DNA of 64,000 nt. It comes from Thermoanaerobaculia bacterium (GTDB lineage: Bacteria; Acidobacteriota; Thermoanaerobaculia; Multivoradales; JAIOJS01). Within the stretch, counting starts at the first letter, position 1. Every line of letters begins with the position of its first letter. The notes beneath the pieces are model-generated. The model saw only the letters and a program-made list of their open reading frames with translations, did not search any database and was not told the origin of the DNA. The translations under genes and the position numbers were made by a program. Of the stretch, positions 48,959 to 64,000 are shown one piece after another. Location of the stretch: assembly GCA_963806095.1 (NCBI GenBank), contig CAWDWV010000003.1, positions 64,657 to 128,656 of the forward strand, in the 5' to 3' direction.

Positions 48959-51178
48959 ATGTACGACAACATCCTCGTCCCCGTCGACAACTCGCGCCAC
49001 AGCAACCGCGCCATCGACACCGGCGTCGAGCTGGGCAAGCGCTTCGGCGCCAAGCTCGTGGGCTGCCACGTCTACGCCGCCAAGATGCACGACTACCGGT
49101 TCAAGCAGATGGAGTTCACGCTCCCCGAGGAGTACCTCGTCGAGCAGGAGCTGCACCGCCAGCGCAAGATCCACGACAGCCTCATCACCATGGGGCTCGA
49201 GCTGATCTCCGACTGCTACCTGGAGTCGATGAAAGCTCAGTGCGATCGCGAGGGCGTCGCCTTCGAAGGCAAGATGATGGACGGCAAGCACTCGATCGAG
49301 CTGGTGCGCGACATCCGCGAGACCGGCTACGACCTAGTGGTGCTCGGCGTGCTCGGCATCGGCCGCACCCGCGACAGCCAGGTGGGCTCGGTCTGCGCCC
49401 GCATCGCCCAGGAGAGCAGCCGCGACGTCTGGGTGGTCAAGCACCTCCCCGAAGCGGACGAGCCCGAGCGCGACACCGTGCTGGTCGGCGTCGACGGCAG
49501 CCCGAAGTCGTTCGGTGCGTTGACCACGGCGCTCGAGCTCTGCCAGCGCTTCGGCAAGAAGCTCGAGGTGATCGCGGTCTACGACCCCTACCTGCACTAC
49601 GCGGTGTTCAAGGGCGTCGTCGAGGTGCTCACCGAGAAGGCCTCGAAGGTGTTCCGCTTCGAGGAGCAGAACCAGCTCCACGAGGAGATCATCGACACCG
49701 GTCTCGCGGCGATCTACCAGTCGCACCTCAACGTCGCCGAGCAGATGGCGCGCGAGGCAGGCGTCGAGTGCAGCAAGACGCTGCTCGACGGCAAGTGCTT
49801 CCAGAAGGTTCTCGACCACGCGCGCAAGAGCAAGCCGTGGGTGCTGGTGGTGGGGCGGCTGGGCGTGCACAGCGCGGCGGACGCCACGGGCCTCGGCAGC
49901 AACACCGAGAACCTGTTGCGCCTGGCGCCCTGCGACGTGCTGCTGACGACGGCGGAGGTGACGCCCGAGCTCGACGTGCGCGCCGAGGAGAGCATCCACT
50001 GGACGCCGGAGGCGCTCTCGCGCATGGAGCGCGTGCCGCCGGCGGTGCTCGGCATCGCGCGCACGGCGATCCTGCGCCTGGCGCTGGAGCAGGGGCACAG
50101 CGTGGTGTCGTCCGACCTCGTCACCGAGGCGATGGAGCGCTTCATGCCCAAGCGGGCTGCCGAGCGCAACCTCAAGCTCGCCGAGGCGCTGGTGCTCGAG
50201 CGCGCCGAGCGCGGCGAGACGGTGATGGTGTGCACCGGCTGCGGCATCGCCGCGCGCACGGCGCAGGCGGTCAAGTGCCAGGTCTGCGGCGGCGAGAGCT
50301 TCGAGGCCCTCGACCCGCAGGCCATCGCCCGCATCATCATGGAAGAGGGCGGCGCCGAGGAGGAGACCACCTACGACGGCCGCAAGGTGCGCTGGACGCA
50401 GGAGGCGCGCGAGGCGTTGCGGGCGATCGACGACCGCTACCAGCGCCGGCGGGCCAAGGCGCGCATCGAGAAGGCGGCCCACGGCGGGCGGACGGACGTG
50501 GTGACGCTGGAGCTGGCGAAGCGGTTCATCGAGGAGGAGACCGGGATCCTCTTCGCGGCGCCGGTGAAGGCGGATGGCGCGGCAGCGAACGGACACGCGA
50601 GCAACGGTCACGCGGCAAACGGGCACGCCGCAAACGGCAATGGGCAGGGGCATGCGAACGGCGCCGGTGCCAACGGGCACGACGGCAACGGGCATGCGCA
50701 CGCCGCCGATGGGCAAGCTGCCAACGGGGCCGCAGCAAACGGCCATGCCGACGAGGTCGACGGGCCTCGGCTCGTGGCGCGCGACGGCAAGGGCGTGCCG
50801 CTGGTCTCGACGCGCGAGTGGACGACGCCGGCGATCGAGCGCATCGTGCGCGTGCCGGCGGGGTTCATGCGCGACCGCACGCAGGAGCGCGTCGAGGCGC
50901 TCGCCGCGGCCGCGGGCGTCGCGACGATCGACCTGCCGCTGGTCGAGGAGGGCATTCAGCTCGGCGTGCAGGCGATGGAGGAGATGATCGCGCAGCAGGC
51001 CGCGGCACCGGCGGTGGCGGCGGCGGCGGAAACGGCACAGCCGGCGGCGTCAGCTTGCCCGTTCGCCCGCGTCGCCGCGGCGCAACCCGAGGCTCTGCGC
51101 GGTCTCTTCCCGCTCGACGAGGTCAGCGTCGTCAGCGAGCTCGAACGGCAACGCCGCGAGCTCGGCACGCAGAGCTGA
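48959..51178 (+). CDS. Tandem universal stress protein (USPx2) + zinc-ribbon + three PCP_red-like domains
   Basis: USP domains: ILVPVDNS..., VLVGVDGSPKS... and VVGRLGVHS. Zinc ribbon: CTGC..CQVC. PCP_red-like repeats: WTPEALSRMERVPPAVLGIAR, RWTQEAREALRAIDDRYQRRRAK and WTTPAIERIVRVPAGFMRDR. Confidence 0.7.
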   Translation: MYDNILVPVDNSRHSNRAIDTGVELGKRFGAKLVGCHVYAAKMHDYRFKQMEFTLPEEYLVEQELHRQRKIHDSLITMGLELISDCYLESMKAQCDREGVAFEGKMMDGKHSIELVRDIRETGYDLVVLGVLGIGRTRDSQVGSVCARIAQESSRDVWVVKHLPEADEPERDTVLVGVDGSPKSFGALTTALELCQRFGKKLEVIAVYDPYLHYAVFKGVVEVLTEKASKVFRFEEQNQLHEEIIDTGLAAIYQSHLNVAEQMAREAGVECSKTLLDGKCFQKVLDHARKSKPWVLVVGRLGVHSAADATGLGSNTENLLRLAPCDVLLTTAEVTPELDVRAEESIHWTPEALSRMERVPPAVLGIARTAILRLALEQGHSVVSSDLVTEAMERFMPKRAAERNLKLAEALVLERAERGETVMVCTGCGIAARTAQAVKCQVCGGESFEALDPQAIARIIMEEGGAEEETTYDGRKVRWTQEAREALRAIDDRYQRRRAKARIEKAAHGGRTDVVTLELAKRFIEEETGILFAAPVKADGAAANGHASNGHAANGHAANGNGQGHANGAGANGHDGNGHAHAADGQAANGAAANGHADEVDGPRLVARDGKGVPLVSTREWTTPAIERIVRVPAGFMRDRTQERVEALAAAAGVATIDLPLVEEGIQLGVQAMEEMIAQQAAAPAVAAAAETAQPAASACPFARVAAAQPEALRGLFPLDEVSVVSELERQRRELGTQS
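50579..50749 (+). repeat. Coding His/Asn/Gly-rich (A-N-G-H)n low-complexity repeat
   Basis: AAANGHASNGHAANGHAANGNGQGHANGAGANGHDGNGHAHAADGQAANGAAANGHA, with a 12-nt periodicity of gcN aac ggN cac. Confidence 0.9.
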
Positions 51179-51202
51179 CCGAGTCGTCAGAAGAGGGCCG
51201 AC

Positions 51203-51219
51203 CACAGCGCTTCGCTGTG
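51203..51219 (+). terminator. Short hairpin after the USP gene
   Basis: cacagcg-ctt-cgctgtg followed by ctttc. A weak intrinsic-terminator candidate. Confidence 0.3.
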
Positions 51220-51452
51220 CTTTCGCGATCCATCGATAGGGGCCGGTGAAATCCCGGCATCGAGTCCGTCTATAGTGGAGCCGGCCTCCCGGTAGACGGT
51301 CTTTGGTCAGGATGAGCCCAGCTGGCTCCGCAGGAGCTCGATCCGGGTGTACACCGCGTCGTGGACACCCAAGGGCACGGAGTGTGCCGTCGGCGCGCTG
51401 CCGGTCACTGCCCCTTGCAAGGATCTGCCCGCCAATTCCGTTCGAGGGAGCG

Positions 51453-52454
51453 ATGGACGCATCCCTCCCGACGGCGGCCGATCCTTCAGCGCCGGCTGCG
51501 CCGCGGCTCCTCGACCGCGTCAGCCATCGCATCCGAGAGCGCCGGCTCTCCCGCCGAACGGAGGAGGCCTATCGGCACTGGGTACGGCGCTACGTGCTCT
51601 TCCACGGCAAGCGGCATCCCTCCGAGCTGGGCATCGTGGAGCTCAACGCCTTCCTCTCTCACCTCGCGGTGGAAGGTCAGGTCAGCCCCTCGACGCAGAA
51701 CCAGGCACTGGCGGCGCTGCTGTTCCTCTATCGCGACGTACTGCAGGTCGAGCTCGGGCAGCCACGCGACTACATGCGCGCCCTGCGGCCGCGACGGCTG
51801 CCCATCGTGCTGTCGAGAACCGAAGTGCGCGCGCTCCTCGCCCAGCTCGACGGCACCGAGCGGCTGCTCTGCACGTTGCTCTACGGCGCCGGCCTGCGGT
51901 TGATCGAAGGACTACGCCTGCGCATTCACGACCTCGACTTCGAGCGGCGCGAGATCACGGTGCGCGCTGGCAAAGGCGACAAGGACCGCCGCACCATCCT
52001 GCCCGCGAGCTCGGTGGAAGGGCTGCAGCGGCACTTGGAGGCCGTGCGCCGGCTCTGGGAGAACGACCACGCTACCAACCTCGAGGGAGTCTGGATGCCG
52101 GCCGCTCTGGACCGGAAGTTCCGCGGCGCCGGCCGCGAGTGGCACTGGCAGTGGCTCTTTCCCACCGCGCGTCCCCAGCGCGACCCGCGCAGCGGTGTGC
52201 TGCGCCGTCACCACTTGCTGGACCGAACTCTCCAGCGGGCGGTGAAACTCGCGGCAGGCAAAGCGGGCATCGCCAAGGCCGCCACGTGCCACACCTTGCG
52301 CCACTCCTTTGCAACCCACCTCCTAGAGGCAGGGTACGACATCCGCACCGTACAGGAGCTCCTCGGCCACCGCGACGTACGCACCACCATGATCTACACC
52401 CACGTTCTCAACCGTGGAGGCCTCTGCGTCCAGAGCCCGGCCGACTTCGGCTGA
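51453..52454 (+). CDS. intI: Integron integrase IntI (tyrosine recombinase)
   Basis: The IntI-specific insertion [39 protein letters not shown]. Catalytic boxes are [46 protein letters not shown] and [11 protein letters not shown]. At 333 aa it is similar in length to IntI1. Confidence 0.93.
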
Positions 52455-52614
52455 ATTCGGGCCGCGTTCGCGGCGGGAGTGAAACAGCTTCTGCGACGCC
52501 GCAGGAGATTGCCGTCACCGATTGTCCGATCCGCCCTGGAGACGAAACCGCATCTTGGACGCTATCCCTACGTCGCCTCGGGACTTGCCCTTCGCGCCGC
52601 GAATCGGGCCCAGC

Positions 52615-52847
52615 GTGTTACGCGTCAATCGGTGTCGCGTAACACTCGGGGAGCGGTTGGAAGGCGCAGGAATCCTTTGTCGCCACTTGCTTGTGAGTCG
52701 GCGAGATAAGCTGGGACATAACAGCGTGACAGCGCGTTACTTGCGGTCGTCGTCAGGTCTCGGGCTGCCGTGTGTTACGCGACAGCCGCATCCACAAGCT
52801 TGCCGGCCGGCTGGCACTCGACCTGTCGGTTAATCAATGGGTTAGGC
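52615..52847 (+). other. Candidate attI region: repeated GTTAC(G) boxes ending in the GTTAGGC crossover core
   Basis: GTGTTACGCG occurs at 52615 and 52772, with its inverted copy CGCGTAACAC at 52636 (10-bp arms, 11-nt spacer). GCGTTAC is at 52734, GGTTAAT at 52828 and GTTAGGC at 52841-52847. No R'' partner is nearby. Confidence 0.5.
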
Positions 52848-52883
52848 GTCAGAACAACCAGCAGTGGCAGGCGTGAGATCGCC

Positions 52884-53267
52884 ATGAATCAGAGAGCAAT
52901 CGAGGTTTTCGCGGCGCTCTACTTCCTGATCATCGGCCTATCCCACGTCTTCCAGCCGCACGCATGGGTCGACTACTTCATTCGCCTCAGAGATCAGGGC
53001 CGCTCCGGCATGTTCACGGAGGGCTTCCTCGCCCTATCGTTCGGCGCGCTGATTGTCGCCTTCCACAACGTGTGGTCCGGCCTTCCGCTGGTGCTGACCC
53101 TCATCGGCTGGGGTCAGGTCGTCAAGGGAACAGTACGATTCGTGGCACCTCAACTAAGCCTCCGCCTCTACCAACAGGTGGCACACGAGCGTGCCGGCCA
53201 GTTCCGACTCGCCGGTGTCTTTGCTCTTGCCGTTGCGGCTCTCCTCGTCTATCTGCTGCTCCGCTAG
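52884..53267 (+). CDS. Cassette 1: small 4-TM membrane protein, unknown function
   Basis: 127 aa: MNQRAIEVFAALYFLIIGLSHVF.... It is the first ORF after the attI core. Confidence 0.6.
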   Translation: MNQRAIEVFAALYFLIIGLSHVFQPHAWVDYFIRLRDQGRSGMFTEGFLALSFGALIVAFHNVWSGLPLVLTLIGWGQVVKGTVRFVAPQLSLRLYQQVAHERAGQFRLAGVFALAVAALLVYLLLR

Positions 53268-53291
53268 GACACTTCGCGCAAGGGCTTGCGA

Positions 53292-54635
53292 CTGTAGGGC
53301 CGACCGCTCCATTTACACTTTGACCGACCGCTGTGTTTACACTCTTCCTCTTCTTACCCTAGCTGTTCTTCCCATTTCTTTGGTCTGTCTTTGGTACGGA
53401 GTTGCAGCATAGAGCTTGAACTTCCGCTCGTCGAACCTGCCGAGGAGAACCGCTCCGAAGTAGAGAGACCAGACGCCGTCGTCGACCTCTTCAAACCCGA
53501 CGTTCTCCTCGGCCAGGACGCTGCTGATGTTGAGCCAGCGCTTGGCCCAGCGCACGCCGCCGTTGCGGCTGACCCTCCGGATCTCCAGATGACCTGGGTA
53601 CTCGATGCTCGGCTCCTGCTTTGGGTATGGCCGCGGCGAGGGCTGGTACAGCGAGGCCGGCGTTCGCTGGCCGATTCCTTCATGAGGTCGCACGAAGTTG
53701 TACTCGCGGCGGAAGGCGGTGAAGCGACGCTGTTGGGCTCTGGCGTTGCCTGCCGCGGGACGCGTGGTGCTCGCCTTCAGCGTCCGATGCATGCGCTCGT
53801 GGGCTCCGTTCTGCTGGGGCGACGACGGCTCGATCAGCTCAGGCCGGATACCCAGCTTGATCCACCACACCGACAGGCGCGAGAGGCGGCCCAGGGCTTC
53901 GCTGGCAAACGGCACTCCGTTGTCGGTTCGAATCGCCTCGGGCAGGCCAAACTCGCGGAAAAGCCGTTGCAGGACAAGCCTCGTCGGCTGGTACAGCGTG
54001 CCGTCGAGGCTCTGGCAGGCCAGCAGGAATCGGCTGTACCCGTCGACCACCGTAAGCGGATAGCAGTACCTGCCATCGCCGGTCTTGAACTGGCCTTTGA
54101 AGTCCATCGTCCACACTCCGTTGGCCTTCGCCATAGGTGTCGTCGGCCGCCCTGGATGCTCGACCCTGCGCCGCGTTCGACGTCGCCGCACCAGGCCGTG
54201 GCGCTCGAGGATCGAGCCGGCCGTGCTGGGAGCTGGCCAAGCCCGATCTGGCTCGAGCTCCCGCAGCACGGCGACGAGCTTCTTGGGACCCCAGCGAAGC
54301 TTGCGCTTGGCCGCCACCAATGCCTTCTCGATCTCCCGAGAGGTCCGCAGCGGTTGCTGCTTTGCCACCGGCGGGCGATCCGCCAGTGCCGACTCACCGT
54401 CTGCTTCGAACCTCTCCAGCCACTTGTACCCTGTGGGCCGGGAGATCCCGTACCGCTGGCATGCTTCGACCATGCTCAGAGTCCCGGACTTCAGGTCTCT
54501 GATGAAGCTCACGCGCTGGTCCATTCGATCGCTCTCCTTCCACGGCATCGACACCTCCTTGGAGGTGTCCATCGTGATCTACCGTGTAAATGGAGCGGTC
54601 GGTCTAAGTGTAAACAGAGCGCCCGGTCTGTACCG
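53292..54635 (-). mobile_element. IS481-family insertion sequence, copy 1 (1344 bp)
   Basis: Identical over all 1344 bp to 61730..63073. The ends carry repeated GACCGACCGCTNNNTTTACAC motifs in inverted orientation. It encodes a single rve/DDE transposase. Confidence 0.88.
53337..54572 (-). CDS. IS481-family DDE (rve) transposase
   Basis: N-terminal HTH (ACQRYGISRPTGYKWLERF). Integrase core is WTMDFKG...PLTVVDGYSRF...IRTDNGVPF...QQNGAHERMHRTLK. 411 aa. Confidence 0.9.
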   Translation of the reverse strand: MDTSKEVSMPWKESDRMDQRVSFIRDLKSGTLSMVEACQRYGISRPTGYKWLERFEADGESALADRPPVAKQQPLRTSREIEKALVAAKRKLRWGPKKLVAVLRELEPDRAWPAPSTAGSILERHGLVRRRRTRRRVEHPGRPTTPMAKANGVWTMDFKGQFKTGDGRYCYPLTVVDGYSRFLLACQSLDGTLYQPTRLVLQRLFREFGLPEAIRTDNGVPFASEALGRLSRLSVWWIKLGIRPELIEPSSPQQNGAHERMHRTLKASTTRPAAGNARAQQRRFTAFRREYNFVRPHEGIGQRTPASLYQPSPRPYPKQEPSIEYPGHLEIRRVSRNGGVRWAKRWLNISSVLAEENVGFEEVDDGVWSLYFGAVLLGRFDERKFKLYAATPYQRQTKEMGRTARVRRGRV

Positions 54636-54642
54636 TCCTGAC

Positions 54643-54718
54643 GCCTAACCCCTCGTTGCAGCGGACGCTACCCGGGCGTTCGCCCGGGCAGCGCCGCTGA
54701 ACTCATAAGCCGTTAGGC
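54643..54718 (+). other. attC 1 (76 bp)
   Basis: R'' GCCTAAC ... GTTGCAGCGG / CCGCTGAAC stem with an extrahelical G, a central GC hairpin, and R' GTTAGGC. Confidence 0.85.
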
Positions 54719-54744
54719 GGCTCGCTCACCAGCAGAGGTTTCTG

Positions 54745-55059
54745 ATGCAGCCGACCTTCACCGTCATCGTGCCAATCGAGGACGGCTTCTTCATGGAGCA
54801 GGTCACTGGGTCTTCTGCTGCCGAAGCCATCGCAACCTGGGCGCGCGAGTTCCCCGCGGACCTCGTTCCGAGTCTTGGCTTCCCCAACAAGCGCAGCTTG
54901 GTTGGTGGGCTCAAGCGGAATCCCCCTCTGACCTCGCGTGACAATCCCGGCGTGTGGTCGTCGAACCTCCGCACTGGGAAGCGATACATCCCAGTGGTGG
55001 TCGTGCGCACGCAAACCTCAAGTCGCGCACCCTCCAAGCGCCGCGGCAAGCGACTTTGA
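54745..55059 (+). CDS. Cassette 2: hypothetical protein (104 aa)
   Basis: A single ORF between attC1 and attC2. No family was recognised. Confidence 0.55.
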   Translation: MQPTFTVIVPIEDGFFMEQVTGSSAAEAIATWAREFPADLVPSLGFPNKRSLVGGLKRNPPLTSRDNPGVWSSNLRTGKRYIPVVVVRTQTSSRAPSKRRGKRL

Positions 55060-55065
55060 TTCGCC

Positions 55066-55141
55066 GCCTAACCCCTCGTTGCAGCGGGCGCTACCCGGGC
55101 GTTCGCCCGGGCAGCGCCGCTGAACTCATACGCCGTTAGGC
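55066..55141 (+). other. attC 2 (76 bp)
   Basis: GCCTAACCCCTCGTTGCAGCGGGCGCTACCCGGGCGTTCGCCCGGGCAGCGCCGCTGAACTCATACGCCGTTAGGC. Confidence 0.88.
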
Positions 55142-55175
55142 GGCACTCGGAACACTCGCGTATTGTCAGCATCGC

Positions 55176-55892
55176 GTGGAAGAAGAGACCGGACTCCAGC
55201 GCAGGCTTAAGCGGCTCAAGGGCCATCCGATCGTGTTGATCGTCGGTGTGCTCGGTGCTCTCCTTGTTTGGCTCGTGAAGGTGACTGATTCTGCCGAGAA
55301 GCTCGCTAGCTTGGTCTCTCGCGATCAGCCTCACGCAACGGCAACGGCAACTCCCGGGGTTCAGCCGCCGGATATCGCACAAGGCCACTCTGCTGCTCCC
55401 CAGTCGAGCCCTCTGCAAGCTCCGCTCGCCGAGATACGCGTGTTCCCTCTAGCCGAAGAAGCGGAGAGCCGTCAGCTCATCACCAAACTCCGAACGGACG
55501 CTGGCCTTCGCTCATTGTCGGTGGTCGAAACTGGCGCCCGCCTCGAGAACGCCCCTTCGGGGACCTTCTTCACGATGAGGGTCATCGACATAGTGGCGGC
55601 ATCGCTTTCCCAGGAGTCCAGGATCAGTTCTCGTCCCGTGAACAACTCCGACTACGAGATCCATCGCCCGCCTCGGAATGGTCCATTGCTCCTCGCATAT
55701 GTAACTCCCACTGACGCAGCCAAGCTCAGCTCGCTTCGTACTTCCGAGGCCCAGGTCCTCTTCACGCCGATACCCTTCGGACCGTTCTCAGTCCTTGCAC
55801 TAGTTCCAATCGATCGGCTCACAGCCCTAACCCCGCGTTACCTTGACACTTCCGACAGTTCTGTCGCGGCACTTGACGCAACTGTTCGGTAG
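55176..55892 (+). CDS. Cassette 3: hypothetical protein with an N-terminal TM helix (238 aa)
   Basis: TM segment IVLIVGVLGALLVWLV, then a Pro/Ala-rich linker and a globular domain. No family was recognised. Confidence 0.55.
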   Translation: MEEETGLQRRLKRLKGHPIVLIVGVLGALLVWLVKVTDSAEKLASLVSRDQPHATATATPGVQPPDIAQGHSAAPQSSPLQAPLAEIRVFPLAEEAESRQLITKLRTDAGLRSLSVVETGARLENAPSGTFFTMRVIDIVAASLSQESRISSRPVNNSDYEIHRPPRNGPLLLAYVTPTDAAKLSSLRTSEAQVLFTPIPFGPFSVLALVPIDRLTALTPRYLDTSDSSVAALDATVR

Positions 55893-55907
55893 GGCTCGCG
55901 CGGTGCC

Positions 55908-55982
55908 GCCTAACCCTTCGTTGCAGCGGGCGACAACCGGGCTTCGCCCGGTTGCCGCCGCTGAACTCAAGCGCCGTTAGGC
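55908..55982 (+). other. attC 3 (75 bp)
   Basis: R'' GCCTAAC at 55908 and R' GTTAGGC at 55976, with the same stem family. Confidence 0.88.
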
Positions 55983-56014
55983 GACACTCGGACCGCACAC
56001 AAGGGCCAGCCATC

Positions 56015-56686
56015 GTGAAGATCGGATCGCTCCGCATGGCAGTGTGGGTTGCCGCCTCTGCCGTTGTGTTGGCGACGCTCCTCTATTCCAGCTTTCGGGT
56101 AGGCGATCCCCAGTTCCTTGACGCAGCCATGAGCGGGCTGTTGTCGACGATCGTCGGTGTTGCACTTGGCGTCCCGGTGGGATTAGAGCTTGCCCGTCGG
56201 CAAGCAGCTGCAGACGAGTCCGCACGTACCGCGGCTGAACGGCAGTCCGAATTGCAGTACCTTGATCAGGTCGTCACCAACGTAGCGCTAGAGCTCGACG
56301 GGAACAGAGACCGACTGCGGCGGCTTCACGAGGTGCTCGACAGTGCGCCGAAGCCCAGCGCCGAACTTTGGGCCGCTGCCGTTGCCGTCGCGGACTCGTT
56401 CGCTTATGCAGCCTTCGACCACTTGCGCACGCTCCCGAATCTCCGGAAGCACTTCGAGCATCACGTCCTTGTCCTCAGCGTCTACCCGTCACTTCGGACT
56501 GTTGCCGCCGACATTCATGCTGCCGAGGCGCTTCACAAGTTCCACATGGGGTTCTCGTTAAATGAGGCTGCTGCCTGCGAGCAGTTTGACTCCATCAAAC
56601 AGTCCGTCGACTTTGGACACTCCGTCCTCGAAGATGCCGTGAAGTCCTGCGATCGCCTCCTCGACCGCCTGCGCAGTGTCGCTTAA
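56015..56686 (+). CDS. Cassette 4: hypothetical 2-TM + helical-domain protein
   Basis: VWVAASAVVLATLLY and LLSTIVGVALGVPVGL, then a helical region. The TAA stop lies inside R'' of attC4. Confidence 0.55.
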   Translation: MKIGSLRMAVWVAASAVVLATLLYSSFRVGDPQFLDAAMSGLLSTIVGVALGVPVGLELARRQAAADESARTAAERQSELQYLDQVVTNVALELDGNRDRLRRLHEVLDSAPKPSAELWAAAVAVADSFAYAAFDHLRTLPNLRKHFEHHVLVLSVYPSLRTVAADIHAAEALHKFHMGFSLNEAAACEQFDSIKQSVDFGHSVLEDAVKSCDRLLDRLRSVA

Positions 56687-56756
56687 CCCCTCGTTGCAGC
56701 GGACGCTACCCGGGCATTCGCCCGGGCAGCGCCGCTGAACTCATAGGCCGTTAGCC
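56681..56756 (+). other. attC 4 (76 bp)
   Basis: R'' GCTTAAC and R' GTTAGCC (variant cores) with the same internal stems. Confidence 0.8.
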
Positions 56757-56802
56757 GACACTCGGGCCATCGTTAAATGCTCAACATCGTCAAGACGCCA
56801 CC

Positions 56803-57795
56803 GTGAAGTTGACCCGCGCCCAGATCGAGCGAGAAGTCTTGTACACCCGCAGCTTCTTCGGGAGCGGCGATTTCGTGCCCACGGAATCGGCTGCTGCGAT
56901 CGAAGAGCGTTGCGCCCAGCTGATCCACTCCTTCGAGGTCATGAGAAAGGCGGTGGAACCGCTGCGGCCCGGCGAACACGCCATCGTGACTTTGACCCGC
57001 AGGAAGACAGCCGCGCTCCTGGCTGACCGAGTTTGGGGGGCCGACACGCTGGCCGATCTCGCGATTAACTTCGGCTGGGAACTGCCGCTGGAAGTTCGTC
57101 TTCGGGCGATGCTCCGCCTCCATCCGTACTTCGAGCGTTCGCCGTCCGCCCCCAAGGTGTCCCCGACCTCACAAGCCGAGACGGAGTCATTCTTGGCGGA
57201 CGTAGAGCGCGACTTGGCCCTCGGCCTTGCTCAGGCCAGCGGGGCAGCAGTCTCTCCTCTCTACAGTCTTGCCTCCAGGCGGGACCTCCAGTATCGCGGG
57301 GGTGACCAAGCGGCCATCGTCTGCATCGTCGACCAACTCGCGATCGTTGACGAGGATCAGATGTCGTGGGAACAAGTCGTAGAGTTCCGCCGTGATCAAG
57401 CTGCCCGCAAGGCCCACAGACGATTCGTGCACTGGCTCGATCGCGAGATGATCGACAAGCCAGTTCAGTACATCGCCGATGACCTTTCGCAACGCCTCGA
57501 ACGGTATGCATGGTCCTTACGGAAGCACGGGATTCAGACCGTGATCGGCTCGTTGAGCAACACCCTGAATCCCAAGTCACTCGTCGCGTCTTCAAGCGCT
57601 GGCGTCGCAGTCAACGTCATCACCGGCCAACCGCTCTGGTCGCTGCTAGCCACCGGCGGCTTGCTGCTCGGGAACGCGGCACTTTCTCTAGCTACTGCGC
57701 TTGTAGAAAGGCGAGACCTTGAGATGGCGTCTCCGGAGATATCCTACGTACATCAGCTGGCCGGAGAACGACGGTCTGATGCCCCGACGCTCTGA
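56803..57795 (+). CDS. Cassette 5: hypothetical 330-aa protein with C-terminal TM helices
   Basis: A soluble N-terminal ~250 aa, then GVAVNVITGQPLWSLLATGGLLLGNAALSLATAL. No family was recognised. Confidence 0.55.
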   Translation: MKLTRAQIEREVLYTRSFFGSGDFVPTESAAAIEERCAQLIHSFEVMRKAVEPLRPGEHAIVTLTRRKTAALLADRVWGADTLADLAINFGWELPLEVRLRAMLRLHPYFERSPSAPKVSPTSQAETESFLADVERDLALGLAQASGAAVSPLYSLASRRDLQYRGGDQAAIVCIVDQLAIVDEDQMSWEQVVEFRRDQAARKAHRRFVHWLDREMIDKPVQYIADDLSQRLERYAWSLRKHGIQTVIGSLSNTLNPKSLVASSSAGVAVNVITGQPLWSLLATGGLLLGNAALSLATALVERRDLEMASPEISYVHQLAGERRSDAPTL

Positions 57796-57810
57796 GCGAC
57801 CGAGAGTGTC

Positions 57811-57886
57811 GGCTAACCCCTCGTTGCAGCGGACACCACACGGGCGTTCGCCCGTGTGGTGCCGCTGAACTCATACACCGTTAGGC
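57811..57886 (+). other. attC 5 (76 bp)
   Basis: R'' GGCTAAC and R' GTTAGGC, with flanks GAGTGTC / GGCACTC that extend the stem. Confidence 0.88.
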
Positions 57887-57919
57887 GGCACTCGGAGCAC
57901 GAGAGGTAGGCTCGAGTCC

Positions 57920-58315
57920 GTGAAGATCAAGAAGCGCTCGGGCTCGCCCATCGGCAAGGCCGCCCGCAAGGGATTCCGTGGCTATCCTGTCGCCACAGTT
58001 GCGTTCTATGGGCCCGACGATCGCCGCGCCAGCAAAGTGGCAGTCGGCATCGTACTGTCGGAGGGCGCCGAGCCCGACATTCTCGAGCGCTGGTTCTCCG
58101 ACACTACGGACGTCCGGTTCGACCGCCGCATCGCCTCCGAGATCCAGGCATTTCTGGCTCGCAACGGTGCGAAGACTGTGGTCACGACGGGCGAGATCAA
58201 CGGCGGTCCACACGAAGAAGGCATCGACTATCCCGAAGGCGATGTCTGCCCCCAGTGTCCGTTCTGGGCCACCGTCGACCGCTGGACCCATGAGCGCCTC
58301 CCCCCATCGCAATGA
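57920..58315 (+). CDS. Cassette 6: hypothetical protein (131 aa)
   Basis: A single ORF containing CPQCPFW. No family was recognised. Confidence 0.5.
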   Translation: MKIKKRSGSPIGKAARKGFRGYPVATVAFYGPDDRRASKVAVGIVLSEGAEPDILERWFSDTTDVRFDRRIASEIQAFLARNGAKTVVTTGEINGGPHEEGIDYPEGDVCPQCPFWATVDRWTHERLPPSQ

Positions 58316-58346
58316 CTTCCCAGACACTCCTCGGCATCTTGCCGCT

Positions 58347-58424
58347 GCCTAACCCCCCGCTGCAGCGGACAACAACCGCGCGTTCGCCCGGTTGTTGCCG
58401 CTGAGCTCTCATACGCCGTTAGGC
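58347..58424 (+). other. attC 6 (78 bp)
   Basis: R'' GCCTAAC at 58347 and R' GTTAGGC at 58418. Confidence 0.85.
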
Positions 58425-58465
58425 GTCACTCGGAGCGCTCTTACACTCCCCAAGGAGGTTGCGGA

Positions 58466-58984
58466 ATGAGCCAAGAAGGTGGCGAGACCTCTGGTCTTGA
58501 TGACGCTCTCTACCAAGGTGCGCTAGCAGAGAAGCACCACTACGACAACCTGTCGTGGACCATCGGCGCAATCGCATTGATCGGCGCTGGCGTACTCGTA
58601 GTTGGGGTCATGCAGGTACCGGGCGCAACCTACCTCGCCCGACTCCCTAGCCAACTGGCGCTCGCGACACTAGCGGTAATCCTTCTGGAGGGATGGCGTC
58701 GCATCTATGAGCGCAATCGGTTCTGGGCTGAAGTCGCCAATGAGAAGCTACGTGACCTCGAGCGTGCACGAGGCGTCGAAGGCGTCACTCTCTCGTTCAT
58801 GAAGGCCGCGCTAACCGGTCAGGTAGTCCTCCAGAACCTCGACCACACTGGTGCGCCGTTTCGCGACCCCTATGTCGAGCGGTGCAGCCAGCACTCAATG
58901 CACGTCAACATCAATAGGGTACTTTGGTTCGTGATGGTCGTTGTGGTTATCTTTGCCCTCCTCCCTCATAGTCCCAAGCAGTGA
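58466..58984 (+). CDS. Cassette 7: hypothetical 3-TM membrane protein (172 aa)
   Basis: AAGGAGG RBS. TM segments are WTIGAIALIGAGVLVVGV, LALATLAVILL and VLWFVMVVVVIFALL. Confidence 0.6.
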   Translation: MSQEGGETSGLDDALYQGALAEKHHYDNLSWTIGAIALIGAGVLVVGVMQVPGATYLARLPSQLALATLAVILLEGWRRIYERNRFWAEVANEKLRDLERARGVEGVTLSFMKAALTGQVVLQNLDHTGAPFRDPYVERCSQHSMHVNINRVLWFVMVVVVIFALLPHSPKQ

Positions 58985-58985
58985 C

Positions 58986-59027
58986 GCCTCTAAAACCCCT
59001 CGTTGCGGAACTCATACGCCGTTAGGC
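58986..59027 (+). other. attC 7, abnormally short (~42 bp) and lacking the central hairpin
   Basis: GCCTCTAAAACCCCTCGTTGCGGAACTCATACGCCGTTAGGC. R'' is interrupted and the variable loop is deleted. Confidence 0.55.
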
Positions 59028-59157
59028 GTCAAGCCGATTCAGCCGTGAGACTGAGCCGTGTCTAGAGACACGGAGGTGAACTCCATGCGCGGTGCCGTCC
59101 CGAGTGGCCGCCCGGGACAAAAGAAGAGGGCAATGGTGCCTGGTATCATCGGCACAC

Positions 59158-59898
59158 ATGGCTAGATGCACGGCACCAGTTCGAGGCCACCGCACAGCGA
59201 GCGCTGCAGCGGACTGCCCTGCATGCGGTGGCCGCTATCGCGGCTACAGCGGATACGGTGGCTACAGCGGCTACCGGCCGAACTCGTCCCCCTCCTACTC
59301 GTCGGGGAGCAGCGTGGGCGGCGGGAGCAGCGTCGGAGGGTCCGGCAGCAGCGGGAGGCCGAGATGGTCGCGACCCGGTTCGTCCGTGGCCTACACGCCT
59401 GCCGAGGTGCGGGCTCTCACGCCGGTCCGCGCCAGTATCGAAAGGCGAGCGCCCTTGCCCGACCTTCGGGACGTCTTTCTCTGCCATGCGTGGGACGACC
59501 GGCTAGGGCCTGCCAAGGAACTGCACGACTTGCTTGAGTCAGTCGGTGTGTCGGTTTGGTTCAGCGAGAAGGACGTCGTCCTCGGCACGCCGTTGCTCCG
59601 TGAGATCGACAAGGGTCTGGCGAAGTCGCGAGTTGGGATCGTGCTGGTGACTCCTGCGTTGCTGCGCCGTCTCCAGGCAGAGGGCATCGCCGACAAAGAG
59701 CTTTCGGCACTCCTAGCGCGCGACCTGCTCGTCCCCATCGTGCACGGCACGACGTACGAAGCTCTTCGCGAAGTCAGCCCCCTTCTCGGCTCGCGAAGCG
59801 GCTTGAGTACAGCAGAAGGACCGATGGCAGACATCGCGGCCAAGCTCGGCGAGTTGGTTGCCTTCAGTCCATTGCCGGGTTCGGGCGTCGCGAGCTGA
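59158..59898 (+). CDS. Cassette 8: TIR-domain protein with an N-terminal Cys pair and a Gly/Ser/Tyr-rich linker
   Basis: DVFLCHAWDDRLGPAKELHDLLESVGVSVWFSEKDVVLGTPLLREIDKGLAKSRVGIVLVTPALL matches the bacterial TIR pattern (DVFISH..D...A..L...L...G..VW.D). GTG 59092 is an alternative start. Confidence 0.75.
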   Translation: MARCTAPVRGHRTASAAADCPACGGRYRGYSGYGGYSGYRPNSSPSYSSGSSVGGGSSVGGSGSSGRPRWSRPGSSVAYTPAEVRALTPVRASIERRAPLPDLRDVFLCHAWDDRLGPAKELHDLLESVGVSVWFSEKDVVLGTPLLREIDKGLAKSRVGIVLVTPALLRRLQAEGIADKELSALLARDLLVPIVHGTTYEALREVSPLLGSRSGLSTAEGPMADIAAKLGELVAFSPLPGSGVAS

Positions 59899-59940
59899 TG
59901 CCCAGCTCCTCGGTCGACAAGGTTCGCGCGGGAGCTTGAC

Positions 59941-60115
59941 GCCTAACCCGTCGCTGCAGCGGACAGCATCGGTGGTTCACACGCGGGGCGTTTTAGGGGT
60001 TCAGGGCCGCACGGCAACACGCCGTCGGTCATGCCGCGTGCGGAGCACGCGTCCTGCCCGTCGGCTTATGGCGTTCTGCCGCCGGGCGCTGCCGCTGAGC
60101 TCAAGGCCGTTAGGC
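59941..60115 (+). other. attC 8, atypically long (175 bp) or two degenerate attCs flanking an ORF-less remnant
   Basis: R'' GCCTAAC is at 59941 and R' GTTAGGC at 60109. An internal degenerate L'-R'-like copy (TTCACACGCGGGGCGTTTTAGGGG) lies at about 59975-59998, and an R''-like GGCTTAT at about 60062. Confidence 0.6.
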
Positions 60116-60131
60116 GGCAGGGGGGACGACC

Positions 60132-60719
60132 GTGACCACCCAACAGCGCGAAGGATTCCCGCCCAACTTCAGGGCGCAGGCACCGGCGTCGGAATCGGCA
60201 CTGTCGGCTGTTCGCGAGGCGCTTCCCGCCACGATCGGCGACGACTACTTCGCCTTTCTGGCGACTGCAAACGGTGGCGAAGGCTTTATCGGCGACTCCT
60301 ACGTCGTCATCTACTCAACGGACGACGTTCTCGCCTTGAACCGGGCCTACGAGGTCCACAGGTTCGCTCCCGGATTGGTCCTCTTTGGCTCAAACGGCGG
60401 CGGCGAGGCGTTCGCCTTTGACAGCCACTCCCAGGCGGCAAGCGTGGTGCAGGTACCCTTCATCCCGCTTCGTGCCCAACTCGCTGAACCGCTAGGCAAC
60501 AGCTTCTCGTCATTCCTCGAAGGTCTTCTCGCCGCGCAAGTCGACCCGCCGCCAGAGATCAACGACGACACGTTTGGCATGGAGGTCCACGAGATCAAGC
60601 CCGTCGTCTTCGGTGGCGACCCAACGGACCACGGTAACAAGGCCCTGATCCCTCGCCCGCAGCATCCGCCGTTGGTCGTCTTCTGGAACGACACCTACCA
60701 GAAGGTTACGGGTCAGTAG
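60132..60719 (+). CDS. Cassette 9: SMI1/KNR4 (SUKH-1) family immunity-type protein
   Basis: LPATIGDDYFAFLATANGGEGFIGDSYVVIYS and LVLFGSNGGGEAFAFD fit the SUKH-1 pattern. Confidence 0.65.
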   Translation: MTTQQREGFPPNFRAQAPASESALSAVREALPATIGDDYFAFLATANGGEGFIGDSYVVIYSTDDVLALNRAYEVHRFAPGLVLFGSNGGGEAFAFDSHSQAASVVQVPFIPLRAQLAEPLGNSFSSFLEGLLAAQVDPPPEINDDTFGMEVHEIKPVVFGGDPTDHGNKALIPRPQHPPLVVFWNDTYQKVTGQ

Positions 60720-60729
60720 GTGACCTGCC

Positions 60730-60806
60730 GCCTTACTCCCTCGTTGCAGCGGACACCACCCGGGCATTCGCCCGGGCGGTGCCGCTGAACTCATACGCCG
60801 CTAGGC
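60730..60806 (+). other. attC 9 (77 bp) with mutated cores
   Basis: R'' is GCCTTAC and R' is GCTAGGC. The internal stems are conserved. Confidence 0.7.
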
Positions 60807-60856
60807 GGCACAGGAACCGACATCGATCCTGCGCCATCGCCAAAGACCAAGAGCCC

Positions 60857-61318
60857 ATGCCCGCCGACCGCTGGACCAACGCCGACTTTGATCAGCTTTC
60901 GTGGCATGACAACCACCTTCATGGCTTCACCGTTCGTGAGGGCGAGCAAGCGCTTGGCGAGCTCGCCCTGGACATCGACTTCATCTTAGAGTGGCTCTGC
61001 GACAAGGACTCGGGCTCATGCGAGTTCCGAATCGCACCAGCCACTCTCACCTTCCACGAGGTCTCGGACCTCGTCGTCGCCCTCGACTACGTCACGACAA
61101 CGGCCGCCTTGTGCCCAGCCAGCATTGGCGAGATAACGAGGGAATCGCGGGCCGACCCTAGCGGCTACCGAACGTTCAATTGGCGCATCGACATCAACTG
61201 GCCCGCAGGGTGTATCCGCTTCATCGCCAGCGGCTTTTCGCAGATCCTCAGAGCCGCGCCGATCGTGGTGCCACAGCAGTACCTTTCCCCTGGTCAACGT
61301 CTTTCAGTCTCTGACTAA
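60857..61318 (+). CDS. Cassette 10: hypothetical protein (153 aa)
   Basis: A single ORF, MPADRWTNADFDQLSWHDNHLHGF.... No family was recognised. Confidence 0.5.
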   Translation: MPADRWTNADFDQLSWHDNHLHGFTVREGEQALGELALDIDFILEWLCDKDSGSCEFRIAPATLTFHEVSDLVVALDYVTTTAALCPASIGEITRESRADPSGYRTFNWRIDINWPAGCIRFIASGFSQILRAAPIVVPQQYLSPGQRLSVSD

Positions 61319-61365
61319 CTACTTCATCCTGGCACGAAGAGCGAAAGCGTACCAGCAGCGAGGAC

Positions 61366-61441
61366 GCCTGACCCTTCCTTGCAACAGAGGCTTCCCGGGC
61401 AATCGTCCGGGCCGCACCGCTGAGCTCCTGGGCTCTTAGGC
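61366..61441 (+). other. attC 10 (76 bp), degenerate
   Basis: R'' is GCCTGAC and R' is CTTAGGC. The stems are diverged (TTGCAACAGAGG / CCGCTGAGCTC). Confidence 0.6.
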
Positions 61442-61486
61442 GACAGTCGGAACATCGGTGAATCTCGAACTAGTCAGACCGGCTCA

Positions 61487-61735
61487 GTGCTCATGCACCC
61501 GACTAAGAGTGATCGCGGTCTAGGCTTTTGTCTCGCGGCCTTCGCGGCTCGGCTGCTGCTTCCAGCAGCCTACGTTGCCGCGATAACGGTCTATCCGATC
61601 GCTCGCTTCGACTTCGGAGTTGGCGCCGCTCTGCTCTGGATCCTGATTTCCGTGTTCATCGTGCCCACCAGCGTTCTCATTCTTGTGCTGCGGGGCCGCC
61701 GCCGTCCTCAGACGGGCGAATGGGCTCGTCTGTAG
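61487..61735 (+). CDS. Cassette 11: small 2-TM membrane protein, 3' end supplied by the IS
   Basis: 82 aa. The TAG stop at 61733-61735 lies inside the left end of IS copy 2. Confidence 0.5.
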   Translation: MLMHPTKSDRGLGFCLAAFAARLLLPAAYVAAITVYPIARFDFGVGAALLWILISVFIVPTSVLILVLRGRRRPQTGEWARL

Positions 61736-63073
61736 GGCCGACCGCTCCATTTACACTTTGACCGACCGCTGTGTTTACACTCTTCCTCTTCTTACCCTAG
61801 CTGTTCTTCCCATTTCTTTGGTCTGTCTTTGGTACGGAGTTGCAGCATAGAGCTTGAACTTCCGCTCGTCGAACCTGCCGAGGAGAACCGCTCCGAAGTA
61901 GAGAGACCAGACGCCGTCGTCGACCTCTTCAAACCCGACGTTCTCCTCGGCCAGGACGCTGCTGATGTTGAGCCAGCGCTTGGCCCAGCGCACGCCGCCG
62001 TTGCGGCTGACCCTCCGGATCTCCAGATGACCTGGGTACTCGATGCTCGGCTCCTGCTTTGGGTATGGCCGCGGCGAGGGCTGGTACAGCGAGGCCGGCG
62101 TTCGCTGGCCGATTCCTTCATGAGGTCGCACGAAGTTGTACTCGCGGCGGAAGGCGGTGAAGCGACGCTGTTGGGCTCTGGCGTTGCCTGCCGCGGGACG
62201 CGTGGTGCTCGCCTTCAGCGTCCGATGCATGCGCTCGTGGGCTCCGTTCTGCTGGGGCGACGACGGCTCGATCAGCTCAGGCCGGATACCCAGCTTGATC
62301 CACCACACCGACAGGCGCGAGAGGCGGCCCAGGGCTTCGCTGGCAAACGGCACTCCGTTGTCGGTTCGAATCGCCTCGGGCAGGCCAAACTCGCGGAAAA
62401 GCCGTTGCAGGACAAGCCTCGTCGGCTGGTACAGCGTGCCGTCGAGGCTCTGGCAGGCCAGCAGGAATCGGCTGTACCCGTCGACCACCGTAAGCGGATA
62501 GCAGTACCTGCCATCGCCGGTCTTGAACTGGCCTTTGAAGTCCATCGTCCACACTCCGTTGGCCTTCGCCATAGGTGTCGTCGGCCGCCCTGGATGCTCG
62601 ACCCTGCGCCGCGTTCGACGTCGCCGCACCAGGCCGTGGCGCTCGAGGATCGAGCCGGCCGTGCTGGGAGCTGGCCAAGCCCGATCTGGCTCGAGCTCCC
62701 GCAGCACGGCGACGAGCTTCTTGGGACCCCAGCGAAGCTTGCGCTTGGCCGCCACCAATGCCTTCTCGATCTCCCGAGAGGTCCGCAGCGGTTGCTGCTT
62801 TGCCACCGGCGGGCGATCCGCCAGTGCCGACTCACCGTCTGCTTCGAACCTCTCCAGCCACTTGTACCCTGTGGGCCGGGAGATCCCGTACCGCTGGCAT
62901 GCTTCGACCATGCTCAGAGTCCCGGACTTCAGGTCTCTGATGAAGCTCACGCGCTGGTCCATTCGATCGCTCTCCTTCCACGGCATCGACACCTCCTTGG
63001 AGGTGTCCATCGTGATCTACCGTGTAAATGGAGCGGTCGGTCTAAGTGTAAACAGAGCGCCCGGTCTGTACCG
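61730..63073 (-). mobile_element. IS481-family insertion sequence, copy 2 (1344 bp, identical to copy 1)
   Basis: Offset by exactly 8438 bp from copy 1, in the same orientation and with an identical transposase ORF. Confidence 0.88.
61775..63010 (-). CDS. IS481-family DDE (rve) transposase (identical to 53337..54572)
   Basis: The 411-aa translations are identical in the ORF track. Confidence 0.9.
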   Translation of the reverse strand: MDTSKEVSMPWKESDRMDQRVSFIRDLKSGTLSMVEACQRYGISRPTGYKWLERFEADGESALADRPPVAKQQPLRTSREIEKALVAAKRKLRWGPKKLVAVLRELEPDRAWPAPSTAGSILERHGLVRRRRTRRRVEHPGRPTTPMAKANGVWTMDFKGQFKTGDGRYCYPLTVVDGYSRFLLACQSLDGTLYQPTRLVLQRLFREFGLPEAIRTDNGVPFASEALGRLSRLSVWWIKLGIRPELIEPSSPQQNGAHERMHRTLKASTTRPAAGNARAQQRRFTAFRREYNFVRPHEGIGQRTPASLYQPSPRPYPKQEPSIEYPGHLEIRRVSRNGGVRWAKRWLNISSVLAEENVGFEEVDDGVWSLYFGAVLLGRFDERKFKLYAATPYQRQTKEMGRTARVRRGRV

Positions 63074-63080
63074 ACGTGTC

Positions 63081-63158
63081 GGCTAACCCCTCATTGCAGC
63101 GGACACCACCCGGGCGTTCGTTCCGGCGGTGCCGCTGAGCTCACACGCCGTTTTAGGC
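63081..63158 (+). other. attC 11 (78 bp)
   Basis: R'' GGCTAAC, with R' carrying a TT insertion (GTTTTAGGC). Confidence 0.75.
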
Positions 63159-63175
63159 GGCAGGGGGAACCGCAG

Positions 63176-63550
63176 GTGACAACTCAAGGGCCGTACCTGA
63201 ACAGAGCCTACGCAGTGCTCGCCTGGCTTCTGGTCGCTCTTGCCGTCCTGCACATGGCCACTACATTCCGGCTTACCTCGGCTAGTGCATCTACCAAGGT
63301 CTGGTTCTTCTCGGCGGGTTTCGCGATGGCTCAAACTGCGGCCTTAAACCTCCTTCATCGCCAGTACGGCCGCTCGCTGCGGGCTCTGAGCTGGGCCACT
63401 CGCGGTTCCAACGCTCTCCTACTCGCGGTTTCGGTCGCTGGCGGGCTCGCCACGGGTGCCGGCGTAGCGGAGCTCGCCGTCGTACTCGGCGTACTCGCCG
63501 CCATCCTTGTCCTGTCTTTCATCGACGGTGCTGAACTCATACGCCGTTAG
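63176..63550 (+). CDS. Cassette 12: small 4-TM membrane protein (124 aa)
   Basis: GTG start after AGGGGGA. TM-rich sequence (AVLAWLLVALAVLHM...). The last 7 codons are encoded by an attC right half. Confidence 0.55.
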   Translation: MTTQGPYLNRAYAVLAWLLVALAVLHMATTFRLTSASASTKVWFFSAGFAMAQTAALNLLHRQYGRSLRALSWATRGSNALLLAVSVAGGLATGAGVAELAVVLGVLAAILVLSFIDGAELIRR

Positions 63551-63552
63551 GC
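63530..63552 (+). other. attC 12 remnant (right half only)
   Basis: GCTGAACTCATACGCCGTTAGGC with no R''/L'' partner upstream. Confidence 0.6.
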
Positions 63553-63596
63553 GACGTGCGGACCAACAGATCCTCCGGGAAGCCCGTAGAAAGCCT

Positions 63597-64000
63597 GTGC
63601 GCCTCCTCACAGCCACCACTTCGATCGTAGCCTTCGTGCTGCTGGCCACCAGCGCGCAGGCTGCACCACGGCGCTTCCCACCGACGTTCCCAGGCGCAAG
63701 ATCGTTGTTGTGGGTCGGGGCTCACCCCGATGACGAGACCATTGCCGCACCTCTCTTAGGCCGTCTGTGCCGCGAGGAAGGCTTGCACTGTGCCTTCCTC
63801 GTCATCACCAAGGGGGAGCGCGGACAATGTCGGCTCCCGAACGGCTGCCACCCGGATCTCGGCTCGGTAAGGGCTTCTGAAATGCGGCATTCGGCTCGCG
63901 TGTTTGGCGCCCAGCTTACGCAGTGGACTCTCCCAGATGGCGGCGCCATGTCGGGCTGGGCGATCGCCGCGGGAGGTGCCGGGGCGCCCTCAGCTCGATC
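63597..64000 (+). CDS. PIG-L/LmbE-family deacetylase with signal peptide (partial, continues past the window)
   Basis: My own translation gives VRLLTATTSIVAFVLLATSAQA...LLWVGAHPDDETIAAPLLGRLC..., which contains the AHPDDE motif. The ORF is open to the window end and absent from the ORF track. Confidence 0.65.
   Translation, partial: MRLLTATTSIVAFVLLATSAQAAPRRFPPTFPGARSLLWVGAHPDDETIAAPLLGRLCREEGLHCAFLVITKGERGQCRLPNGCHPDLGSVRASEMRHSARVFGAQLTQWTLPDGGAMSGWAIAAGGAGAPSAR

Follow-up and report, generated by a model that had tools for sequence, protein, structure and literature searches.

Integrons in which the integrase gene points in the same direction as its cassette array form a recognised minority. 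A review lists the 'inverted integrase group' as one of the three groups of integron integrases (IntI) (PMC3575428), and 'reverse' or 'unusual' integrons are described from T. denticola, A. baumannii, Chlorobium, and Blastopirellula (PMC6557892). The inverted integrons of Treponema denticola, Chlorobium phaeobacteroides, and Blastopirellula marina go back to Coleman 2004 and Boucher 2007, as cited in PMC6557892, PMC3575428, PMC4889954, and PMC13323075. Cury et al. discussed the inverted-integrase group, found it paraphyletic, and noted the inverted class 1 integron of A. baumannii as an isolated case (PMC4889954), and a 2026 soil study treated the two orientations as two known integron types (PMC13323075). 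The inverted-integrase layout is rare but already an established category, and the integron described here is a further example of it. It occupies the 3' part of a 64-kb window, which is the whole stretch of DNA analysed (64,000 nucleotides of contig CAWDWV010000003.1).

The best explanation is an inverted-integrase (reverse) integron of the sedentary chromosomal kind, whose fixed locus follows a respiratory gene cluster and a Usp-PCP_red gene, and the probability of this reading, judged from sequence comparisons, is put at roughly 0.9. In common with the inverted-integrase integrons, it has intI on the strand that carries the attC top strands and the cassette open reading frames (ORFs), with the array and a candidate attI lying 3' of intI, and its IntI clusters with those of other co-oriented loci, including one of a Planctomycetaceae genome (L061). 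It differs from the described ones in its host, assigned to Thermoanaerobaculia. With the classical sedentary integrons (the V. cholerae superintegron, those of Xanthomonas and of betaproteobacteria) it shares the IntI fold including the additional domain, homogeneous attCs, a fixed locus, fast cassette turnover, and mostly unknown cassette functions, and with its classical relatives also the attC geometry (3 bp, a bulge, 6 bp, a bulge, and an asymmetric spacer). What sets it apart from the classical integrons is the orientation of intI relative to attI and the array, and because of this difference its cassette promoter, Pc, cannot sit inside intI pointing away from it, as is the case in class 1 integrons.

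Integrase, attC sites, and orientation of the array

The IntI protein scores 446.8 bits against the NCBIfam model TIGR02249 'integron integrase' (cut-off 265), while the Xer models all remain below their cut-offs (XerD 146 bits against 330, XerC 144 against 335, and XerA likewise). The XerC and XerD profile matches are each broken into two stretches around an insertion, and the XerA alignment falls in two parts, omitting residues 198–255. Residues 25–330 of IntI align unbroken, end to end, with VchIntIA/IntI4 (PDB 2A3V; E 4e-90). Judged by these alignments, residues 198–255 are the IntI-specific insertion (ALDRKF...RRHH at residues 218–254). The catalytic residues R149, K174/K177, H280, R283, H306, and Y315 are all present, and both points made about the protein in an earlier reading of the bare DNA (the sequence-only reading), namely that it is an IntI and not XerC/D and that its catalytic boxes are intact, are borne out. 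IntI also matches the generic Phage_integrase family of Pfam. It is 55–62% identical to any IntI of the species-representative genome set, and an identical IntI followed by the same first cassette occurs in an independent assembly (ERR12035939, 2.8-kb contig). Exact-protein look-ups with the transposase, cassette 12, and cassette 7 proteins gave no match.

Twelve attC sites or remnants of such sites are found at 54.6–63.6 kb, all on the + strand. The motifs GCCTAAC...GTTGCAGCGG...CCGCTGAAC...GTTAGGC are confined to 54643–63552 of the 64-kb window and occur in the + orientation only, and GTTAGGC itself is present 14 times against 2.8 expected, a count reached by none of 100 shuffles. The sequence-only reading had announced at least 12 palindromes of about 76 bp. 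The family is real and 12 members lie on the + strand, but only eight of them are 75–79 nt long; the others comprise one site of 175 nt (attC8), a degenerate one (attC10), and two remnants, that of cassette 7 with a central deletion and that of cassette 12 consisting of the 3' half alone. Similarly, GCCTAAC, taken before as the start of every repeat, is one form of the R'' box, and the variants GCTTAAC, GGCTAAC, CCTTACT, and GCCTGAC occur beside it.

The bottom (−) strands of eight sites, when folded as single-stranded DNA, adopt the attC shape with z values of −4.4 to −6 against shuffles. In this fold the R stem measures 7 bp, the unpaired spacer is asymmetric (9/5 nt), and the L stem contains two extrahelical bases separated by 6 bp. 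The unpaired G noticed earlier in the stem is real on the + strand, and 6 bp deeper in the stem there is another conserved bulge (A). In an alignment of nine sites 92% of the cells are paired, against ca. 35% when the partner columns are slid, and six stem pairs show changes on both sides, i.e., compensatory ones; the mean attC column identity is 84%. The first extrahelical base, a C on the bottom strand and not the textbook G, was considered as a possible peculiarity of this array and rejected, since 17 of 36 attCs of classical relatives share it, a fraction biased by the selection of these hits with a model favouring that base.

A test of orientation was needed, because a palindrome of this kind reads RYYYAAC...GTTRRRY on both strands. 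A covariance model built from the + strand sites of the window (R1) was searched on 80 loci encoding related IntIs, with intI set to +. On the 22 loci with attCs located 5' of intI (mostly Proteobacteria) all 38 hits fell on the − strand, pointing away from intI; therefore the + strand of the window is the attC top strand. A second covariance model (R2), built solely from these 38 attCs of classical-layout relatives, accepts nine window sites with 40–66 bits, all on + and including the 175-nt one, and nothing else in the 64 kb passes. It rejects attC10 and the two remnants, and the same three fold no better than shuffles. attC11 folds weakly (z −1.2) yet scores 47.3 bits with R2, and the long attC8, with its structured variable region, folds with z −2.6 and scores 50.0 bits. 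A detector combining regular expressions with folding was dropped in favour of the covariance models, as it found 4–6 window sites and one false positive. The two checks suggested along with the sequence-only reading, bottom-strand folding and a covariance-model search (here with R2), gave canonical attC geometry with extrahelical bases and nine accepted sites, respectively.

The three closest IntIs (loci L084, L082, and L081; 79–85% identity) are encoded beside the same neighbouring genes and share the co-oriented layout, their 23 attC hits all falling on the + strand 3' of intI. Eleven more distant loci, from Thermoanaerobaculia, other Acidobacteriota, Gemmatimonadota, Planctomycetaceae, Lentisphaeria, and one unclassified metagenome-assembled genome (MAG), are co-oriented as well. 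In a neighbour-joining tree all 14 co-oriented IntIs are located within one clade of 25, and the best split of the tree separates 49 of the 50 labelled taxa (bootstrap mean 47.2). The sole 'classical' member of the clade is L036, labelled so on the strength of an attC hit with E = 0.82; this label was discounted. The claim that intI is co-oriented with the array, the 'inverted intI' layout, is hence upheld by a strand assignment calibrated on the 38 classical attCs and by the three close and 11 distant loci, and a phylogeny, which had been named as a further check, places IntI among co-oriented IntIs, although in a tree without an outgroup. The 264-aa IntI call (82% identity) is found in L082 (10001–10795) and in L083 (238–1032) together with a long array of well-formed attCs; it is truncated or mis-started.

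The 51 kb upstream of intI hold housekeeping genes, including those for LptD, GDP-mannose dehydratase, and 5'-nucleotidase, and an ACIII-like respiratory gene cluster, and the source contig is 187,664 bp long. The gene order before intI is ACIII-like Fer4/cytochrome c genes, Usp-PCP_red, intI. The Usp gene of the relatives is up to 95% identical to that of the window, and none of the cassette ORFs of the window occurs in them, which is the pattern of a platform inherited vertically while cassettes turn over fast. The mean G+C content is 71.6% in the backbone vs 62.5% in the array, and the G+C content at third codon positions (GC3) is 0.64–0.78 in the cassette ORFs vs 0.85–0.98 in backbone genes. 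The assignment to the sedentary chromosomal type, which the sequence-only reading had drawn from the near-identity of the attCs, agrees with the conserved flanking gene order, the identity of Usp, the attC column identity, and the difference in G+C content. The host is probably a high-(G+C) member of Acidobacteriota, class Thermoanaerobaculia, as an ActB-like marker protein is 76–79% identical to proteins of Thermoanaerobaculia MAGs.

attI, the spacer, and the cassettes

The array is opened by a lone R' box (GTTAGGC, 52841–52847) situated 387 nt 3' of the intI stop codon and lacking an attC 5' half. At the same position CTTAAT-N6-GTTAGGC or GTTGGGC is found in L082 and L084, and the 11 nt following the crossover point pair with the R'' flank of attC1. 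The sequence 52828–52847 (Table 1) is taken as the putative attI simple site, and the GTTACGCG-type repeats upstream as candidate accessory sites. These include a palindrome, GTTACGCG-N11-CGCGTAAC, at 52617–52643 and a direct GTTACGCG at 52774–52781, and all three copies of GTTACGCG present in the 64-kb window fall in the 387-nt spacer between intI and the array. Another block, GAGATTSCCG...GTCCGATCC, lies at 52506–52535. Both the palindrome and this block are kept in the three closest relatives, while the remaining spacer diverges. They may represent an operator, accessory IntI-binding sites, or promoter elements. A terminator scan recovered no + strand terminator-like site between intI and the first cassette, and one on the − strand. 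attC1 is 2.2 kb distant from the intI stop codon, a 1.3-kb insertion sequence (IS) included.

With the crossover placed at G/TT, every cassette begins with 9–13 nt that can pair with the sequence flanking the R'' box of that same cassette, and some of the pairs are cassette-specific, e.g., TTAGCC/GGCTAA in cassette 5, where the 5' end pairs over 13 nt with the unusual R'' box, and GTCAAGC/GCTTGAC in cassette 8. Such end complementarity is the footprint that would be expected of circular cassettes inserted singly at G/TT. By the established integron mechanism, IntI would recombine the folded bottom strand of the attC of a circular cassette with attI, so that new cassettes would enter beside attI, 3' of intI, and attC × attC recombination would excise cassettes. 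The co-directionality of intI and the cassettes makes the source of cassette transcription less certain; it would probably be a promoter in the 387-nt spacer, read-through from intI, or both.

Table 1. Features of the integron and of the elements inserted in it (positions in the window; R1 and R2, covariance models described in the text; z, fold score against shuffles)
Feature	Position	Strand	Remarks
intI, integron integrase, intact	51453–52454	+	333 aa; TIGR02249, alignment with 2A3V, catalytic residues
intI–attI spacer with conserved blocks	52455–52827	+	GTTACGCG repeats; blocks kept in L081, L082, L084
Candidate attI simple site	52828–52847	+	GGTTAAT-CAATGG-GTTAGGC; lone R' box; crossover G/TT at 52841/52842
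Cassette 1	52842–54712	+	ORF 52884–53267, DUF2065-like (Pfam, 30 bits, weak); IS481-family insertion; attC1 54643–54718, R2 65.9 bits, z −5.96
IS481-family element, copy 1	53292–54635	−	1344 bp; transposase 53337–54572; in cassette 1
Cassette 2	54713–55135	+	ORF 54745–55059 (104 aa), no Pfam or PADLOC match; attC2 55066–55141, R2 62.0 bits
Cassette 3	55136–55976	+	ORF 55176–55892 (238 aa), no family; attC3 55908–55982, R2 60.4 bits
Cassette 4	55977–56750	+	ORF 56036–56686 (216 aa), no family; attC4 56681–56756, R2 58.4 bits
Cassette 5	56751–57880	+	ORF 56803–57795 (330 aa), no family; attC5 57811–57886, R2 65.4 bits
Cassette 6	57881–58418	+	ORF 57920–58315 (131 aa), no family; attC6 58347–58424, R2 59.6 bits
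Cassette 7	58419–59021	+	ORF 58466–58984 (172 aa), no family, membrane-like by eye; attC remnant 58986–59027 (43 nt), z +0.48, R1 23.9 bits, not found by R2
Cassette 8	59022–60109	+	ORF 59092–59898, TIR domain, Thoeris ThsB-like; attC8 59941–60115, R2 50.0 bits
Cassette 9	60110–60800	+	ORF 60132–60719, SMI1/KNR4 (SUKH-1; Pfam PF09346, 38.8 bits); attC9 60730–60806, R2 39.8 bits
Cassette 10	60801–61435	+	ORF 60779–61318, no family; degenerate attC10 61366–61441, R1 69.9 bits, z +1.3, not found by R2
Cassette 11	61436–63152	+	ORF 61487–61735 (82 aa), stop codon inside the IS end; IS481-family insertion; attC11 63081–63158, R2 47.3 bits
IS481-family element, copy 2	61730–63073	−	1344-bp block identical to copy 1; in cassette 11
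Cassette 12	63153–63546	+	ORF 63176–63550 (124 aa), membrane-like, no family, reads through the attC remnant; L'–R' remnant ~63520–63552, not found by R1 and R2
Start of probable 13th cassette	63553–64000	+	PIG-L/LmbE-family ORF from 63597, running off the window end; Pfam PIG-L 46.5 bits

The window comprises 12 cassettes and the start of a probable 13th (Table 1). The array probably continues beyond it, because the PIG-L ORF that follows the last R' box has a cassette-like composition, unlike that of the backbone (GC3 0.71). Large arrays of sedentary chromosomal integrons commonly have at least 20 attC sites. The designation of the integron as complete, made in the sequence-only reading, is valid in the IntegronFinder sense (intI plus attC) and not with respect to the array, whose end is outside the window. 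Its account of the array was right about the cassettes, with one ORF before each repeat, cassette by cassette, but it omitted the two IS481-family elements, the ThsB-like TIR cassette, and the probable run past the window. It was also correct in stating that most cassette ORFs belong to no recognisable family, as only three of the 12 have a Pfam match (a weak one to DUF2065, SMI1/KNR4 (SUKH-1), and TIR/ThsB-like).

The product of cassette 8 matches the PADLOC ThsB model PDLC00424 with 400 bits over profile positions 1–233 of 234, as well as Pfam TIR_2. Compared with Thoeris, a system of ThsA and ThsB, it corresponds almost end to end to the ThsB TIR protein; no ThsA or other PADLOC match was found in the other nine of the ten cassette ORFs scanned (cassettes 1–10, with 11 and 12 outside the scan). 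Defence genes in the cassettes of chromosomal integrons are a described trend (bioRxiv 10.1101/2024.07.02.601686), and by analogy the ThsB-like cassette would fit the view of chromosomal integrons as phage-defence gene stores. Cassettes 7 and 8 are probably fused, their genes now forming one unit, because the attC between them is a non-folding remnant. A TIR ORF preceded by one of 172 aa is present in L081 too, and a conserved defence pair made up of cassettes 7 and 8 was therefore considered; it was rejected when tblastn revealed no similarity.

Two features of the backbone have been noted in passing. The Usp-PCP_red gene contains, at 50570–50770, 15-nt periodic direct repeats giving an (ANGH)n-like low-complexity linker, and a large TPR-CHAT domain protein of 1199 aa, showing no relation to the integron, is encoded at 12846–16445 on the − strand.

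Decay, inversion, and the standing of the integron

The array bears signs of age, namely the three degenerate or truncated attCs, which fuse neighbouring cassettes, and the two IS-bearing cassettes. Several points weigh against the reading proposed above. Of the 12 attCs three are defective, and IS elements are inserted in two of the cassettes; the IntI of L082, called at 264 aa, leaves room for partial decay of the integrons in this lineage; and no sigma-70-like promoter, as a candidate for Pc or PintI, was recognised in 51100–53300, i.e., around intI and in the spacer, by a scan uncalibrated for Acidobacteriota. Moreover, R1 and R2 derive from the window's own sites, directly or at one remove, and the IntI tree is a neighbour-joining one constructed without an XerC/D outgroup and without the Treponema, Chlorobium, and Blastopirellula reference IntIs.

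The defective attCs, the IS insertions, the short IntI of L082, and the failure to recognise a promoter are also what would be seen in a fossil integron, one of inverted architecture in which capture and excision have ceased and whose array is inherited passively. This explanation survives best among the alternatives and is nevertheless unlikely, since the IntI of the window is of full length and has all the catalytic residues, nine attCs are well formed, the cassette-specific end complementarity has been retained, and relatives with a 95% identical Usp share no window cassette ORF, which implies recent turnover at attI.

Much less probable is a classical divergent ancestor in which intI was flipped by a local, e.g., IS-mediated, inversion, making the co-orientation an accident of this genome. 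IS elements do occur in the array, and the inverted class 1 integron of A. baumannii reported by Cury et al. (PMC4889954) is an isolated case of such a layout. However, the two IS copies have the same orientation and lie within the array, not beside intI, and no attC was detected in the 51 kb on the other side of intI by motif search, R1, or R2, for which reasons a recent inversion is very unlikely. The same layout, flanking genes, and position of the candidate attI 3' of intI in the three closest relatives, as well as the clustering of the 11 more distant co-oriented loci with the IntI of the window, argue against an accident confined to one genome.

That the locus is no integron at all, and consists of an XerC/D-like or phage integrase beside REP-like palindromic repeats, an idea to which the imperfect palindromy of the attCs and the match of IntI to Phage_integrase might lend themselves, is effectively refuted by the TIGR02249 score well above the cut-off with all Xer models below theirs, the IntI-specific insertion alignable with 2A3V, the strand asymmetry of the repeats and their acceptance by a model made from attCs beside intI genes of other phyla, the single ORF preceding each repeat, and an Rfam scan of the window in which no family exceeded its gathering threshold.

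An IS481-family element beside attC sites

The more unusual feature of the array, and the lead worth following, is the apparent targeting of attC sites by its IS. The transposase scores 223.0 bits with NF033577 (cut-off 224) over profile positions 1–283 of 284; Pfam rve, rve_3, and LZ_Tnp_IS481 are above their cut-offs, and its relatives are named 'IS481 family transposase'. In each of the two copies the IS end is located exactly 8 nt 5' of the R'' box, of attC1 and attC11, respectively. The same holds for all ten independent insertions (counted over the two copies of the window, L086–L090, and L093–L100): the R'' box follows the IS end (...CCGGWCTGTACC) after exactly 8 nt every time, and the orientation of the IS never changes. 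The insertions span transposases of 58–100% identity and two attC types. Three metagenome contigs match the IS end exactly (identity of the IS 80–94%, where measured), and in each of them it is followed by 8 variable nt and the GCCTAAC of a model-confirmed attC. The same junction is found in relatives with transposases 86% and 64% identical, and in a relative whose transposase is 58% identical it recurs at three or more sites, there next to attCs of another type. None of the cases examined was an insertion elsewhere than at an attC, and none of five complete IS junction pairs has a recognisable target-site duplication. On this evidence the target specificity of the IS looks solid.

Beyond these ten there is one case that an IS110-family element interrupts. 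Three features stand end to end in L091, and also in L092, namely an element of the IS481 family, one of the IS110 family (Transposase_20), and an attC, a pattern suggesting that two different attC-seeking insertion sequences struck one site successively. In L093 a truncated integron-integrase fragment (2722–3309; the SAM_4 domain only, 195 aa), situated beside ilvD, abuts the left end of an IS481-family relative, at the other end of which there is an attC; this arrangement may have arisen by an IS-associated deletion of the integron platform.

Among the elements known to target attC are the IS1111-attC group and the group IIC-attC introns (Tetu & Holmes 2008 and Post & Hall 2009, as cited in PMC11089894 and PMC12444791; see also PMC11187229). 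The IS of the array resembles them in its single orientation, its fixed position relative to attC, and in joining a mobile cassette: being inserted at a fixed position beside attC, it would ride inside mobile cassettes. It differs from the IS1111-attC group in its DDE (rve) transposase of the IS481 family, the latter elements being of the DEDD type (IS110/IS1111) and seekRNA-guided, and from both groups in inserting 8 nt outside the R'' box, whereas they insert inside attC. The chances are about even that the element represents an undescribed clade of DDE-transposase insertion sequences targeting integron attC sites; the literature searched names only the IS1111-attC elements and the group IIC-attC introns in this role, and as ISfinder was outside the search, novelty is uncertain.

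The integron as such leaves the existing knowledge of integrons unchanged and is of low to moderate interest beside the targeting by the IS. It provides a well-resolved inverted-integrase example from a soil lineage that is abundant and uncultured, the Thermoanaerobaculia, and one in which a candidate attI and conserved motifs of the spacer can be named. The platform is kept by close relatives in which every cassette has been replaced, and this offers material for locating Pc and for studying a possible coupling of intI and cassette expression. The targeting of attC by the IS, if true, would be a second, mechanistically different solution beside that of the IS1111-attC elements and group IIC-attC introns. 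Should it prove new, a DDE transposon reading the position of attC to the nucleotide would give transposons a new way of settling in integron cassettes and of being carried along by them, and it would serve besides as a marker for cassette arrays in metagenomes.

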